This document shows positions 5,450-61,316 of a stretch of 64,000 nucleotides of DNA, in pieces; the first letter of the stretch is position 1, and every line of letters begins with the position of its first letter. The translations under genes and the position numbers were made by a program. Source of the DNA: Escherichia coli (GTDB lineage: Bacteria > Pseudomonadota > Gammaproteobacteria > Enterobacterales > Enterobacteriaceae); NCBI RefSeq assembly GCF_016903815.1, contig NZ_CP069973.1; one strand, given 5' to 3'. The notes beneath the pieces are model-generated. The model was not told the DNA's origin. It worked only from the letters and a program-made list of their open reading frames with translations, and did no database searches.

Positions 5450-5482
5450 ACGCAAAAAGGCCATCCTGACGGATGGCCTTTC
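5450..5482 (-). terminator. rrn operon terminator
   Basis: Minus-strand hairpin AAGGCCATCC-GTCA-GGATGGCCTT followed by T-rich tract, immediately after the 5S gene. Confidence 0.6.
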
Positions 5483-10832: not shown

Positions 10833-10947
10833 GCGAAAAATATAAAAACTTTATCGTTCGCTCATTTTTCAGGCAAAACATCTTAAATATAGTCTTTTCC
10901 GTCTAACTTATAGACAAAAACGAGCCCCGAAGGGCTCGTTTTATCAT

Positions 10948-13521
10948 TTACTGGACGGCGACAATCCGGTCTTCATTAACTTCCAGGCGAATCACTTTAC
11001 CCGGAACCAATTCACCAGACAGTATTTGCTGTGCCAGCGGGTTTTCAATCTGCTGCTGAATTGCACGTTTCAGAGGACGTGCGCCATAGACCGGATCGTA
11101 ACCGTTCTCGCTCAGCAGTTTCAGCGCCTCGTCAGAAATGTGGATTTCATAACCACGTTCTTCCAGACGTTTATACAGACGTTTCAACTGAATCTGCGCA
11201 ATCGACGCAATGTGCTGTTCACCCAGCGGATGGAAGACCACCACTTCATCGATACGGTTAATGAATTCCGGACGGAAGTTATGGCTAACCACACCGAGCA
11301 CCAGCTCTTTCATGTGCGCATAATCCAGTTCACCGAAGCGTTCCTGAATCAGATCGGAACCGAGGTTAGAGGTCATAATGACGACCGTATTACGGAAGTC
11401 GACCGTTCTCCCCTGCCCGTCAGTCAGACGCCCATCATCCAGTACCTGCAACAGAATGTTGAAGACATCCGGATGCGCTTTTTCCACTTCATCCAGCAGG
11501 ATAACGGAATACGGACGACGACGCACAGCTTCGGTCAGGTAGCCACCTTCTTCATAACCAACATATCCCGGAGGCGCACCAACCAGACGAGACACCGAAT
11601 GTTTCTCCATAAACTCGGACATATCGATACGGACCATCGCCTCGTCGCTATCAAACATAAAGTTCGCCAGCGCCTTACAAAGCTCAGTTTTCCCCACACC
11701 CGTTGGGCCGAGGAACAGGAATGAACCAATCGGGCGATTTGGATCCGCCAGCCCCGCACGGCTACGACGAATAGCGTTAGATACCGCATCAACCGCTTCG
11801 TTCTGACCAATAACGCGATGGTGCAGCTCTTGCTCCATACGCAGCAGTTTTTCGCGCTCGCTTTCCATCATGCGAGAAACCGGAATCCCCGTCCAACGCG
11901 CCAGCACTTCAGCAATTTCGGCGTCGGTCACTTTATTACGCAACAGACGCATAGTTTTGCCTTCGAGCTGCGTTGCGGCTTCCAGTTGCTTTTCCAGTTC
12001 CGGGATTTTGCCGTATTGCAGTTCAGACATCCGCGCCAGGTCACCCACACGGCGAGCCTGTTCAATAGCGATTTTCGCCTGTTCCAGTTCCGCTTTAATG
12101 GTCTGTGTACCAGAAAGCGATGCTTTCTCTGCTTTCCACTCTTCTTCTAACTCGGAGTACTGACGTTCTTTGTCGCTCAGTTCTTCGTTGAGCATATCCA
12201 GGCGTTTTTTACTGGCTTCATCAGACTCTTTCATTAACGCCTGTTGTTCCAGTTTGAGCTGGATAATACGACGATCGAGTCGGTCGAGTTCTTCTGGTTT
12301 TGAGTCAATCTGCATACGAATGCTGGATGCTGCTTCATCGATCAGGTCGATGGCTTTATCCGGCAGCTGACGGTCAGCAATGTAGCGATGAGACAACGTC
12401 GCCGCTGCAACAATTGCCGGGTCAGTAATTTGCACATGGTGGTGCAGTTCGTAACGTTCTTTTAAGCCACGCAGAATAGCAATGGTGTCTTCAACAGAAG
12501 GCTCGGCAACAAACACTTTCTGGAAACGACGTTCCAGCGCAGCATCTTTTTCGATGTACTGGCGATATTCGTCAAGCGTCGTGGCACCTACGCAGTGCAA
12601 TTCACCACGCGCCAGCGCCGGTTTCAGCATGTTTCCGGCGTCCATTGCGCCATCGGCTTTACCCGCGCCGACCATGGTATGTAATTCGTCGATAAACAGG
12701 ATGACGTTGCCTTCCTGTTTGGCAAGATCGTTAAGCACGCCTTTTAAACGTTCTTCAAACTCACCGCGATATTTCGCCCCAGCCACCAGCGCGCCCATAT
12801 CCAGCGCCAGTACGCGGCGGCCTTTCAACCCTTCCGGCACTTCGCCGTTGATAATACGCTGCGCCAGACCTTCAACGATGGCAGTTTTACCGACGCCGGG
12901 TTCACCAATCAGTACTGGGTTATTTTTAGTACGACGTTGCAGCACCTGAATGGTACGGCGAATTTCTTCATCACGACCAATCACCGGATCGAGTTTGCCC
13001 TGTTCGGCTCGTTCGGTAAGGTCGATGGTATATTTTTTCAAAGCCTGACGTTGGTCTTCAGCACCTTGATCGTTCACGCTTTCACCTCCACGCATTTGTT
13101 CAATCGCTTGAGTAATGTTGGCGGTGGTCGCCCCTGCTGCTTTCAGGATGTCGGCCAGCGTGCCGCGAGACTCAAGTGCCGCCAGAACGAACAGTTCTGA
13201 CGAGATAAAGTTATCACCACGTTTTTGCGCCAGCTTGTCGCAAAGATTAAGAACGCGCACCAGATCCTGTGATGGCTGGACATCACCACCAGTACCTTCA
13301 ACCTGCGGTAAACGATTTAATGCCTGATTGATATCTGTGCGCAACTGGCCAGCATTTATGCCAGCGGATGTTAATAAAGGACTAACCGAACCCCCTTCCT
13401 GATTCAGCAGGGCGCTCATTAAATGAAGTGGTTCGATAAATTGGTTGTCGTGCCCGAGTGCAAGTGATTGGGCATCGGCAAGAGCAAGCTGGAATTTATT
13501 AGTAAGACGATCCAGACGCAT
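10948..13521 (-). CDS. clpB: ATP-dependent disaggregase chaperone ClpB
   Basis: 857-aa product starting [11 protein letters not shown]; two AAA+ modules with Walker A motifs ([16 protein letters not shown]). Confidence 0.95.
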
Positions 13522-13560
13522 AACTCCTCCCATAACGGATCAAAGTTGCTACTGGAGATT

Positions 13561-16246: not shown

Positions 16247-16276
16247 CAAAACGGCAGCCCTTGAGCTGCCGTTTTT
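16247..16276 (+). terminator. rho-independent terminator after bamD
   Basis: Hairpin ACGGCAGC…GCTGCCGT followed by T7. Confidence 0.55.
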
Positions 16277-21741: not shown

Positions 21742-22957
21742 CGATAATTCTCTTAATAAGCGCCCCACGTTTAAAAGAGCATTACGCAACATCAGTATGA
21801 CCAGCATATTTATCACTATGATGCTGATCTGGTTGCTGCTTTCCGTGACCTCGGTGCTGACCCTGAAACAGTACGCGCAAAAAAACCTGGCACTGACAGC
21901 AGCAACAATGACTTACAGTCTGGAAGCAGCGGTCGTTTTTGCCGATGGCTCTGCAGCAACTGAAACACTGGCAGCGCTGGGGCAGCAAGGCCAATTTTCA
22001 ACTGCAGAAGTGCGTGATAAGCAGCAAAATATTCTGGCATCCTGGCATTACACCCGTAAGGATCCAGGCGATACTTTCAGTAATTTCATAAGCCACTGGC
22101 TCTTCCCTGCCCCCATCGTTCAGCCGATTCGTCACAATGGTGAAACCATTGGCGAAGTTCGCTTAACCGCTCGCGACAGTTCAATCAGCCATTTCATCTG
22201 GTTTTCGCTCGCTGTCCTGACCGCCTGCATTCTGCTGGCATCAGGCATCGCAATTACCCTCACCCGCCATTTGCACAAGGGTCTGGTTGAAGCGTTAAAA
22301 AACATCACCGATGTCGTACATGATGTGCGTTCCAACCGCAATTTTTCCCGACGAGTTTCGGAAGAACGTATCGCAGAGTTTCACCGCTTCGCTCTCGACT
22401 TCAACAGTCTGCTGGATGAAATGGAAGAGTGGCAGCTTCGTTTACAGGCCAAAAATGCGCAGCTTCTACGTACCGCACTACATGACCCATTAACCGGGCT
22501 GGCTAACCGCGCAGCGTTTCGTAGCGGTATCAACACGTTGATGAACAGTTCCGATGCCCGAAAAACGTCGGCGTTACTATTTCTTGATGGCGATAATTTC
22601 AAATATATCAATGATACCTGGGGTCATGCGACGGGCGATAGAGTCTTGATTGAAATCGCAAAACGGTTAGCTGAATTTGGCGGGCTGCAACATAAAGCAT
22701 ACCGCCTGGGCGGCGATGAATTCGCGATGGTGCTCTATGATGTACAGTCGGAATCTGAAGTGCAGCAGATATGCTCAGCACTGACACAAATCTTTAATCG
22801 CCCGTTTGATCTTCATAATGGCCATCAGACCACCATGACATTAAGCATTGGTTACGCAATGACCATTGCGCACGCTTCTGCGGAAAAATTACAAGAGCTG
22901 GCCGATCACAATATGTATCAGGCCAAACACCAGCGTGCCGAAAAGCTGGTGAGATAA
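21731..22957 (+). CDS. dgcN: diguanylate cyclase (membrane, HAMP + GGDEF)
   Basis: 408-aa product with TM segments and GGDEF-type motif ([10 protein letters not shown]). Confidence 0.85.
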
Positions 22958-22972
22958 CAAGGATATATCGAT

Positions 22973-23455
22973 ATGATAAAGCACCTGGTAGCACCCCTGA
23001 TTTTCACCTCGCTAGTACTGACTGGCTGCCAGTCCCCTCAGGGAAAGTTTACTCCTGAGCAAGTCGTCGCTATGCAATCTTATGGATTTACTGAATCCGC
23101 CGGCGACTGGTCGCTGGGCTTATCAGATGCCATTCTGTTCGCAAAAAATGACTACAAATTGCTCCCGGAAAGCCAGCAACAGATCCAAACCATGGCAGCC
23201 AAATTGGCCTCGACAGGGCTAACACATGCCCGTATGGATGGACACACCGATAACTATGGTGAAGACAGTTACAACGAAGGCTTATCATTGAAACGGGCGA
23301 ATGTCGTGGCCGATGCATGGGCTATGGGTGGAAAAATTCCACGCAGCAATCTCACCACACAGGGTTTAGGAAAAAAATATCCCATAGCCAGTAACAAGAC
23401 CGCCCAGGGCCGCGCCGAGAACCGCCGCGTCGCAGTGGTGATTACAACCCCTTAA
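22973..23455 (+). CDS. yfiB: OmpA-family outer membrane lipoprotein YfiB
   Basis: 160-aa product, lipobox LTGC, OmpA-like C-terminal domain. Confidence 0.85.
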   Translation: MIKHLVAPLIFTSLVLTGCQSPQGKFTPEQVVAMQSYGFTESAGDWSLGLSDAILFAKNDYKLLPESQQQIQTMAAKLASTGLTHARMDGHTDNYGEDSYNEGLSLKRANVVADAWAMGGKIPRSNLTTQGLGKKYPIASNKTAQGRAENRRVAVVITTP

Positions 23456-23472
23456 AACACGAGCAAACAGAC

Positions 23473-23501
23473 AAAAAAAGGGCCAGCCAATTGGCCAGCC
23501 C
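23473..23501 (-). terminator. orphaned native terminator of the rplS operon, separated from rplS by the prophage
   Basis: Minus strand GGGCTGGCC-AATT-GGCTGGCCC (9-bp stem with 2 G-U pairs) followed by T7; lies immediately bacterial-side of attL. Confidence 0.6.
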
Positions 23502-23533
23502 TTCTTAACAGGATGTCGCTTAAGCGAAATCTT

Positions 23534-23546
23534 AGTTAAGACGCTC
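23534..23546. repeat. attL core (AGTTAAGACGCTC)
   Basis: Identical 13-mer to attR; reverse complement encodes E-R-L-N-stop, a displaced copy of the rplS 3' end. Confidence 0.7.
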
Positions 23547-23627
23547 CTATTAACACCCCGCAACAAACAAACGCTTACCATATAAAACAATTAGTTAAAG
23601 TAATTTTTAATGCAATGAATTGCAGTG

Positions 23628-24677
23628 TTATGCAACCTCTGCCGCCATATTGTCGCCAACATACAGCGATAACGGATTAAGGGTTACAGCTTGTTCAAGG
23701 TGGTCAGGAGCAAAGTGTGCATACTTCATTGTTTCTCGAATATTGGCATGCCCGAGAATTTTCTGCAGTACCAGTATATTCCCGCCGTTCATCATAAAAT
23801 GCGCACCAAAAGTATGACGCAAAACGTGCGTCTTCTGCCCTTCCGTCAATTCAATATTCGTTAGTTTGAGCATCTTCTTAAACTCCTGATAGCAGGGTTT
23901 AAACATTCTGCCTTGACGTACGGACAACTCGTCGTACAGCCATTTAGGAATAGGAACTGTGCGATTCTTCTTACCTTTGGTTTTGGTGAACGTCAGTTTA
24001 TATGGAGAAAGTTGAGGGCGGGTCAATCTCTCCGCTTCCCCCCATCGAGCGCCGGTTGCAAGGCACACCTTAACAATCATGGTGAGGTCTTCTTTGCCGT
24101 ATTGCTCGCAGGCTCGAAACAGCTCCGGGAGCTGAGACAAAGTTAGCCAGGACATTTCTTTCTCAGCCTCTTTGAATACTCGGATCCCATCAAGTGGATT
24201 GGGTAGGCTCCACTCCCCTAACCGGCGGAGCTCATTAAACACTGCTTCTAGGTATTGTTGTTCGCGATTGACGGTTATAGGTTTGGCGATCCATTTCGAG
24301 GGGTCTTTATGATAACCGTTGTCTATTTCACCACGTAATCGACGGTCACGATAATGAGCCCAGTCTTTCGCGGTAAGGCGAGATGCAATCGGGTCACCAA
24401 GCCCATTACATACGATTTGAAGCTTTGCTAACCTCGACTTACTGGCGACTAACGCTTGACCGTGCAAATTGTGCCAAAGCTGAATAATCTCGCTTAAGCG
24501 TCGGCGGTCTTCTTTCTTGCCAAGCCACGGCTTATCTTCACTCTCGCTTTTGGTAAATGCTTCGAATGCCTCGGCCTCACCTTTGGTATTGAATTGCCGA
24601 CGTATACGCCGCCCTTCTCGACCATTTGGATAGAGCTCGCATAACCATTTGCCATTTTTTTGCTTACTTACAGTCAT
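23628..24677 (-). CDS. int: tyrosine site-specific integrase
   Basis: 349-aa product with R…HxxR…Y catalytic signature (VLRHTFGAHF, MKYAH); adjacent to attL. Confidence 0.9.
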   Translation of the reverse strand: MTVSKQKNGKWLCELYPNGREGRRIRRQFNTKGEAEAFEAFTKSESEDKPWLGKKEDRRRLSEIIQLWHNLHGQALVASKSRLAKLQIVCNGLGDPIASRLTAKDWAHYRDRRLRGEIDNGYHKDPSKWIAKPITVNREQQYLEAVFNELRRLGEWSLPNPLDGIRVFKEAEKEMSWLTLSQLPELFRACEQYGKEDLTMIVKVCLATGARWGEAERLTRPQLSPYKLTFTKTKGKKNRTVPIPKWLYDELSVRQGRMFKPCYQEFKKMLKLTNIELTEGQKTHVLRHTFGAHFMMNGGNILVLQKILGHANIRETMKYAHFAPDHLEQAVTLNPLSLYVGDNMAAEVA

Positions 24678-54947: not shown

Positions 54948-55022
54948 AAAAGCAAATCATAACTTGCAAATGCAATTTTAGAGTTTATTATTCCCTCAAA
55001 CGCGCCAGCAGGGGGAAAAATT

Positions 55023-55241
55023 ATGATGCACTGCCCGTTATGCCAAAACGCCGCACATGCTCGTACTAGCCGGTACCTTAGCACCGAAACGAAAGAACGT
55101 TATCACCAATGCCAGAACATAAATTGCGGATGTACATTTATCACTTTTGAGACGCTATCAAGATTCATTGTGAAACCGGGCACTGTTGATCCTGCTCCGC
55201 CACATCCCATCAGAAACCAACAACAGCAACTTTGGCTTTGA
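55023..55241 (+). CDS. ogr: late gene transcriptional activator Ogr (zinc finger)
   Basis: 72-aa product MMHCPLCQNAAHARTSRY…HQCQNINCGCTFIT, recognised Ogr/Delta family. Confidence 0.85.
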   Translation: MMHCPLCQNAAHARTSRYLSTETKERYHQCQNINCGCTFITFETLSRFIVKPGTVDPAPPHPIRNQQQQLWL

Positions 55242-55264
55242 ACCTGCTTCGGCAGGTTTTTTAT
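55241..55264 (+). terminator. rho-independent terminator after ogr
   Basis: AACCTGC-TTCG-GCAGGTT followed by T6. Confidence 0.7.
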
Positions 55265-55315
55265 ATCTGTCGCCATCGCGCCAATCTCTGCCGCCAATTT
55301 GCCGCCACCACCAAT

Positions 55316-55345
55316 GAAAAAGGGGTTAGCAATTCGCTAACCCCT
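55316..55345 (-). terminator. phage-borne palindromic terminator now positioned downstream of rplS
   Basis: Perfect 10-bp stem AGGGGTTAGC/GCTAACCCCT with 5-nt loop; T-tract on the minus strand; about 40 bp beyond the rplS stop. Confidence 0.6.
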
Positions 55346-55384
55346 TGTTTCATAACACGCTTTGGATGTAGCGCGAATACGTTA

Positions 55385-55735
<351 letters not shown>

Positions 55736-61262: not shown

Positions 61263-61269
61263 CGAAAAC

Positions 61270-61293
61270 GGCCCTGCATTCGCATGCAGGGCC
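61270..61293. terminator. bidirectional terminator between convergent yfjD and grpE
   Basis: GGCCCTGCAT-TCGC-ATGCAGGGCC perfect 10-bp stem. Confidence 0.6.
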
Positions 61294-61316
61294 GTGAATT
61301 ATTACGAAAACAGAAA

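Follow-up and report, generated by a model that had tools for sequence, protein, structure and literature searches.

A palindrome in the attP of a PSP3-like phage as the probable replacement for the native rplS terminator in an Escherichia coli lysogen

How does transcription of the rpsP-rimM-trmD-rplS operon end, when a prophage adjoins the last gene of the operon? We addressed this question in a 64,000-nucleotide stretch of Escherichia coli DNA (contig NZ_CP069973.1, assembly GCF_016903815.1)—hereafter called "the window"—in which rplS, the gene for the ribosomal protein L19, occupies positions 55385-55732 on the minus strand and is preceded by trmD, rimM, rpsP, and ffh. The original prediction, made from the window sequence, was that a prophage has separated rplS from its native terminator, and that a palindrome in the phage DNA now insulates the phage and the operon from each other. 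Our comparisons argue that this palindrome, at 55320-55346, is probably a Rho-independent terminator residing in the attP of a PSP3-like phage, which would replace the native rplS terminator upon integration.

Where does the phage DNA begin? A 13-bp att core, AGTTAAGACGCTC, is directly repeated at 55387-55399 (attR) and 23534-23546 (attL). The 31.8-kb prophage delimited by the two copies (23547-55386) is PSP3-like (Eganvirus, P2 family): its D-ogr end and its int-orf-cI end flank attP, its gene order is that of PSP3, and its Int is 80-98% identical to that of the related loci. The host homology starts at 55387; 5,358 of the 5,425 matching complete E. coli genomes match only from there rightwards, and the whole 55387 junction is present in 67 of them. 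In the unoccupied site of E. coli C, the core is flanked by the host part of attL on the left and by that of attR on the right. In addition, the attP reconstructed by joining 55200-55399 to 23547-23700 is colinear with the free phages PSP3, SEN1, SW9, Midge, and RCIP0057, and it has in common with these phages the succession of ogr, the ogr terminator, the arm repeats, the hairpin, the core, and int. The identity over the ogr-to-int interval is 92-94% for PSP3, SEN1, and SW9 (54950-55399) and 84% for Midge and RCIP0057, in which the core is AGTTCAGACGCTC, with the Leu codon CTG in place of CTT. Taken together, the core repeat, the attP reconstruction, and the match to the unoccupied site indicate that the palindrome is phage DNA within attP, in agreement with the prediction that the phage supplies the hairpin 3' of rplS.

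In this attP, the hairpin is placed between the core and the integrase arm-type repeats of the P arm. The latter have the sequence YGYCGCCA on the plus strand (at 55268, 55289, and 55300, together spanning 55268-55307), and are conserved in the PSP3-like and Fels-2-like attP. The P'-arm repeats, TGCCGCCA and TGTCGCCA, are located on the plus strand at 23640 and 23651 (23640-23658), inside the 3' end of int. We also considered CTCTGCCGCCA, present at 23637 and 55286, as an alternative core, and rejected it: it would leave two rplS ends in the host, it belongs to the YGYCGCCA arm repeats, and AGTTAAGACGCTC is the core that agrees with the unoccupied site of E. coli C.

The exact position of the junction differs from that originally predicted, which was beyond the rplS stop codon. 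Read on the minus strand, the core is GAG CGT CTT AAC T and thus comprises the last four codons of rplS and the first base of its stop codon, so that the junction falls inside the open reading frame. In the lysogen, the stop codon is TGA (55385-55387) and is directly followed by an in-frame TAA (55382-55387 for the pair, minus strand), whereas rplS in unoccupied E. coli ends with a single TAA; only the first base of the stop is within the att core. L19 ends with KERLN in both the occupied and unoccupied states, and its accession, WP_000065253.1, is identical in the lysogen and non-lysogen annotations. As deduced from these sequences, the integration point of the prophage is inside rplS, with the protein product unchanged. 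For annotation, this means that the true prophage boundary is inside rplS, and not in a yfiB-rplS or yfiN-rplS spacer.

What does the phage place behind rplS? The hairpin starts 38 nt past the rplS stop—not immediately beyond it, as had been claimed—and no gene lies between. The plus strand of 55316-55346 reads gAAAAAGGGGTTAGC-AATTC-GCTAACCCCTT, in which the stem GGGGTTAGC/GCTAACCCC pairs 55322-55330 with 55336-55344 and leaves a loop at 55331-55335. This stem can be extended by AA/TT to cover 55320-55346, giving 11 perfect pairs (nine G/C-rich and two A-U pairs); the palindrome is perfect, as predicted, and its stem is 11 bp long rather than 10 bp. The hairpin alone folds on the minus strand with an energy of -18.7 kcal/mol (z = -6.8; 0 of 200 shuffles as good), and its 80-nt context folds with -30.6 kcal/mol (z = -4.7). 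Moreover, the 64-kb window contains five perfect hairpins with stems of 11 bp or longer, compared to 0.17 expected from shuffles.

The other four perfect hairpins of this size in the window are located at 5456-5481, 10917-10942, 16248-16275, and 61268-61295. Three of them have runs of A and T on their sides, and resemble bidirectional terminators.

On the minus strand, which is the rplS strand, the stem is followed by the U-rich tail UUUUUCAUU (55313-55321). Its first two U residues are able to pair with the AA at the stem base, and the four stem pairs adjoining the tract are all G-C. The terminator consensus scan called the site on the minus strand only, counting 12 pairs, one of them G-T, and giving the tail as TTTCATTGGT. 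The sequences on both sides of the stem are T-rich, as had been noted, but they are unequal: the rplS-strand tail has the pattern U5-C-A-UU, while the plus strand, on which ogr is encoded, has only UUGUUUCAU. The combination of a stable G/C-rich stem, a U tract, an upstream stop codon, and RNA-type substitutions (described below) is that of an intrinsic terminator, and we infer from it that transcripts would end at the hairpin, with some efficiency. One point counts against this assignment: the U tract of the window copy is interrupted after five U residues, as compared to mostly U6-7 in the relatives and U7 in the native E. coli terminator.

An Rfam search at both prophage junctions returned nothing at threshold. 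The only hit, a weak full-length match to the Streptococcus sRNA SpF03 (24.5 bits, E = 0.42; gathering score, 50), coincides exactly with the rplS end, the 3'UTR, and the terminator (55302-55414, minus strand), and is probably due to chance.

The native rplS terminator is now at attL (23473-23506, minus strand). It consists of a stem-loop at 23480-23501, which folds on the minus strand with -20.4 kcal/mol, and the subsequent U7, corresponding to the A7 at 23473-23479 of the plus strand. The same sequence is directly 3' of rplS in unoccupied genomes, such as E. coli C, which confirms the prediction that the native terminator, located at 23473-23501, has been moved about 32 kb away. The displaced terminator remains oriented towards the convergent yfiB; in E. 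coli, yfiB and rplS have the native terminator in common. In the Salmonella flanks (L119, L126, and L097), the alignment with the window (compared region, 22942-23455) runs to 22942 in dgcN/yfiN and then jumps straight to the rplS terminator, and Salmonella therefore has no yfiB at the rplS site.

Next, we compared the phage segment with the native ends of rplS. A search pattern derived from the spacer between the stop and the hairpin was run on IMG/VR and on bacterial contigs from one genome per species, and the loci were classified by the positions of the Ogr, Int, and L19 matches and of the host flanking genes. Four kinds of locus were found: an attP (L021); attR junctions in Enterobacter, Escherichia, Lonsdalea, and Brenneria; about 20 attL junctions with Salmonella-like host DNA on the outer side; and native unoccupied rplS sites in Salmonella arizonae, Salmonella diarizonae, Lonsdalea, Brenneria, and Affinibrenneria. 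In the native sites, no ogr is present to the left, and the flank matches dgcN and its neighbours. The phage and native loci align as one element, with the layout stop, small hairpin, ACATCC, G/C-based hairpin, and U tract, which is also that of the native Enterobacterales rplS terminators. In the window, the part of this element preceding the terminator is the phage-borne 3'UTR copy at 55347-55384 (minus strand), which contains the second in-frame stop TAA, the small hairpin, and ACATCC, as recognized by the alignment with native 3'UTRs and by folding.

How similar are the phage and native copies? Counted over 72 positions beyond the 13-nt core, the copies in Midge and RCIP0057 share 63-64 positions (88-89%) with the Salmonella native flank, and the window copy shares 54 with that of S. 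arizonae and 33 (46%) with that of E. coli. Overall, the phage copies beyond the core are 63-89% identical to the native unoccupied Salmonella flanks, and the Lonsdalea and Brenneria flanks are similar as well; the prophage copies in Brenneria and Lonsdalea are closest to those genera's own native versions. The window copy exceeds the native flank of E. coli by 10 nt, and has U5 instead of U7 and TGA-TAA instead of TAA. Judging from this alignment as one element, the phage segment of about 90 nt is a diverged homologue of the native Enterobacterales rplS end, 3'UTR, and terminator, and so is not an unrelated insulator. The proposed insulation of the phage from rplS read-through is therefore retained in the form of a replacement terminator, recognized by comparison, while the notion of a phage-invented device is not.

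The ACAUCC motif (55355-55360 and 23511-23516 in the window; alignment columns 31-36) is invariant in all of the host and phage copies, although the search pattern by which several of the related loci were retrieved required GGATGT and the core, and the conservation of those columns is partly due to ascertainment. ACATCC is also present in the E. coli native flank, a sequence outside the pattern-based search.

In order to determine which strand the hairpin serves, we counted the stem pairs of 33 unique hairpins per sequence, in register from the stem base. The 21 rplS-type hairpins, from phages and hosts, have 177 Watson-Crick pairs, 14 G·U pairs, and no mismatches on the rplS/int strand, and the 12 ssrA-type hairpins described below have 105, nine, and none, respectively, on the ssrA/int strand. 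The two sets together contain 282 Watson-Crick pairs and 23 G·U pairs, with no mismatches. On the ogr strand, each of the 23 G·U positions is a C·A or A·C mismatch, and the reverse case does not occur; as the sequences are related, the 23 represent fewer independent events, corresponding to roughly 8-10 distinct variants. The direction of the asymmetry, favouring the rplS/int strand, is unambiguous despite this kinship. One stem position shows U-A, U·G, and C-G across the family. Consistently, the rplS/int strand folds better in 27 of 30 sequences, with a mean advantage of 6.1 kcal/mol. With RNAalifold, the MAFFT alignment yielded no more than the outer seven pairs, of which three show double changes, as differences in loop length shift the inner stem.

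The presence of G·U pairs on the rplS strand, where the ogr strand has C·A, suggests that selection on the hairpin acts in one direction only. A purely DNA-level palindrome is excluded by this strand-specific pattern. The prediction had also assigned the hairpin a role in shielding the host operon from ogr, and this part is not supported, in view of the asymmetry and of the fact that ogr has its own terminator. The late-gene activator gene ogr (55023-55241, plus strand; annotated as pag in PSP3 and ogr in Midge) is the last gene at that prophage end, and its intrinsic terminator, with an 8-bp stem and T6AT, is at 55240-55265 (scan call, 55240-55259), with no U tract on the opposite strand. More generally, strand-specific G·U variation provides a cheap indicator of which strand a palindromic terminator serves.

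Integration would also change the 3' end of the integrase transcript. The tyrosine integrase gene int (23628-24677, minus strand; assigned from the PSP3 int annotation) is the last gene of the leftward cI-orf-int block, and is transcribed towards attL. The interval from the int stop to the core contains no terminator. Downstream of int, the nearest terminator in the circular phage is the 55320-55346 hairpin, at 132 nt from the int stop; in the prophage, the displaced native rplS terminator takes this place.

From these observations, we propose the following sequence of events. The tyrosine integrase would recombine the phage and host DNAs at the 13-bp core, which is made up of the four terminal codons of rplS and the first base of the stop. 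Beside the core, attP carries a diverged copy of what normally follows: the rest of the stop codon, a 3'UTR of roughly 40 nt that includes a small hairpin, and the terminator hairpin, followed by its U tract. Upon integration, L19 is left unchanged, the native 3'UTR and terminator are displaced by 32 kb to attL, and the phage copies come to lie behind rplS. RNA polymerase arriving from rpsP-rimM-trmD-rplS would then stop at about 55313-55320, before entering ogr and D in the antisense direction. The swap would be reciprocal: the hairpin would end the cI-orf-int transcript in the circular phage, and the native rplS/yfiB terminator would take this position after int in the prophage.

Is rplS the transcript for which the hairpin is maintained? 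As the hairpin is downstream of int across attP, ending the cI-orf-int operon is an equally good reason for its conservation. The hairpin might thus be kept mainly as the cI-orf-int terminator, separating convergent int and ogr transcription, with the termination of rplS as a by-product. Its place as the first terminator after int in attP suits this possibility, and since int and the hairpin share a strand, the G·U asymmetry fits equally well; in addition, the ssrA-targeting phages Fels-2, SopEPhi, and SEN8 carry a sister hairpin at the same position relative to the arm repeats. However, the hairpin and 3'UTR are homologous to the native rplS flanks of prophage-free sites, which points to an origin as a host terminator, and in relatives with cargo genes after ogr, the hairpin stays beside the core and the host gene. 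We therefore regard int termination as the main reason for conservation as possible, but as the less probable of the two accounts. The two are not mutually exclusive: a terminator for rplS in the lysogen is the best-supported statement, and it is plausible that the hairpin has a job in both the lysogen and the circular phage. A symmetric, bidirectional insulator, blocking the rplS and ogr/late transcripts equally well, is unlikely. In the window copy, the stem is a perfect palindrome, the two strands fold about equally well (-18.7 and -19.2 kcal/mol), both sides have T-rich runs, and relatives have TTGTTTTAT on the ogr strand. Nevertheless, this symmetry is not a family-wide property, as every imperfect stem position in the family is C·A on the ogr strand, with a mean cost of about 6 kcal/mol; furthermore, the scan made no plus-strand call, and the ogr terminator is already present 60 nt upstream.

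We consider two further explanations to be very improbable. The location of the hairpin in attP, with the arm-type repeats on one side and the core on the other, would suit a DNA-level recombination-site element, bound by a dimeric protein (an Int accessory protein, an IHF-like protein, or an excisionase), rather than an RNA signal. Such an element would not be expected from the homologous hairpins 3' of rplS in hosts without a phage at the site, nor from the mode of variation: the stem bases change with the pairing kept, the loops vary freely, a U tract always follows, and the imperfections are strand-specific G·U pairs, which are meaningless in duplex DNA. In addition, neither att arm contains a match to the IHF consensus. 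The hairpin might also take part in a regulatory exchange of 3' ends like that of lambda sib, with the int mRNA stability depending on the circular or prophage state: the mRNA would end in the phage hairpin only if transcribed from circular DNA, and in the host terminator if transcribed from the prophage. The geometry is indeed that of lambda int/sib, with an RNA hairpin located across attP from int and uncoupled from it by integration. The resemblance is limited to this position: the partner sequence gained on integration is also a terminator, both of the alternative 3' ends are ordinary and similar terminators (-18.7 and -20.4 kcal/mol), no extended RNase III-type duplex is present, and no support was found in the literature. 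The replacement of the rplS terminator thus remains the preferred reading of the hairpin.

How does this arrangement compare with known systems? It is long established that phages integrate at the 3' ends of tRNA, tmRNA, and some protein genes and restore these ends; phage 21 and e14 integrate in icd. Phages 186 and HP1 integrate in tRNA genes, and Fels-2 and SopEPhi in ssrA (PMC3448106). These systems share with the present one a core that overlaps the 3' end of the gene, the exact restoration of the product, a phage arm homologous to the normal downstream part of the gene, and an adjoining tyrosine integrase. The present case differs from the tRNA, ssrA, and icd ones in its target, the ribosomal-protein gene that closes a very highly expressed operon, in the short identity to E. 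coli of only 13 bp, and in what is replaced, which is essentially the stop, 3'UTR, and terminator, and not a functional RNA or protein sequence. The case fits the known design of 3'-end integration; no new mechanism is involved, and the current understanding is not overturned. It illustrates how a temperate phage can occupy the end of a heavily transcribed operon without harm to its host or to itself, by bringing along a copy of the last codons, the 3'UTR, and the presumably functional terminator of the target gene.

Streptococcal phages also use the 3' end of rplS (PMC7487436). In Salmonella Pullorum, the PsP3-like prophage phiSPU2 is listed at "yfiN-rplS" (PMC6449608, Table 1), and thus represents the same phage group at the same chromosomal site as the window prophage. 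The site is given there as intergenic, and the table entry mentions neither a core inside rplS nor a terminator copy. Our literature searches found no described terminator in the attP of P2/PSP3 or Fels-2.

A further close parallel is the attP of Fels-2, SopEPhi, and SEN8 (Felsduovirus), in which ogr, the ogr terminator, the TGYCGCCA repeats, the hairpin, the core, and int follow one another in the same order as in the attP described here. The sister hairpin is at the same place relative to the TGYCGCCA arm repeats, its flanks are nearly identical (ATAAAACAAGGGGTTA...CCCCTTTTTC), and it has the same pattern of G·U on the sense strand. In contrast to the window hairpin, it abuts the CCA end of the tmRNA, without the 38-nt copy of the rplS 3'UTR, and its inner stem is TTACG instead of TTAGC. 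This ssrA-type form is found in L008, L009, L010, L132, and about 60 IMG/VR loci (L011-L090), as well as in about 230 E. coli genomes. In a comparison that sought the unoccupied ssrA site, the ssrA flanks in E. coli differed in almost every genome.

Of 5,426 complete E. coli genomes, 84 (about 1.5%) are occupied at rplS, and in these the rplS mRNA would have a stop codon and a 3'UTR of foreign origin. Seventeen E. coli genomes, E2348/69 among them, contain another type of prophage at the rplS site, which differs in its arm repeats (AGTGTCCA) and in the presence of a cargo gene that separates ogr from the att site. Even so, rplS is directly followed by the 3'UTR copy and the hairpin in these prophages. 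In E2348/69 (L131, 1645-2573), AGTGTCCA occurs twice, and the cargo gene encodes 240 aa, is oriented like rplS, and lies just beyond the hairpin; a promoter-like TTTACA-17-TATAAG precedes it. A Pfam search of the cargo genes beside the hairpin in the relatives gave one sub-threshold BRCT match only, and the L131 cargo had no match.

On a broader scale, lysogeny may rewrite the RNA end of the rplS operon, which is essential and highly expressed, by supplying a Salmonella-like 3'UTR in E. coli, and the exchange of UTRs and terminators between phages and hosts may recur across Enterobacterales, an extension that we put forward as speculative and rather doubtful. If true, the foreign 3'UTR could alter the stability of the rplS mRNA, the read-through, or any RNA derived from the 3'UTR.

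Three of the compared sequences have unusual features. In Salmonella enterica subsp. arizonae CCUG 6322T (L119, about 13440-13544), the unoccupied rplS site has a chimeric 3'UTR: the stop-proximal part, TGATAACGTATTCACGCTACATCC, is of the phage type, as in the window and PSP3, and the hairpin is of the Salmonella native type. This chimera suggests a past exchange between the phage and host copies. The phage record ON470592.1 (vB_EcoM-613R3, 45 kb) is 100% identical to the window across attR (record positions 11390-11839) and includes the host rplS, annotated as L19p; the record evidently contains the host flank. Finally, the 7.5-kb contig JAEYMU010000045.1 (L127), labelled "MAG: Bacillota bacterium", contains an attR junction with Ogr and L19 matches that are 100% identical to the window, and is probably a mis-binned E. 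coli contig.
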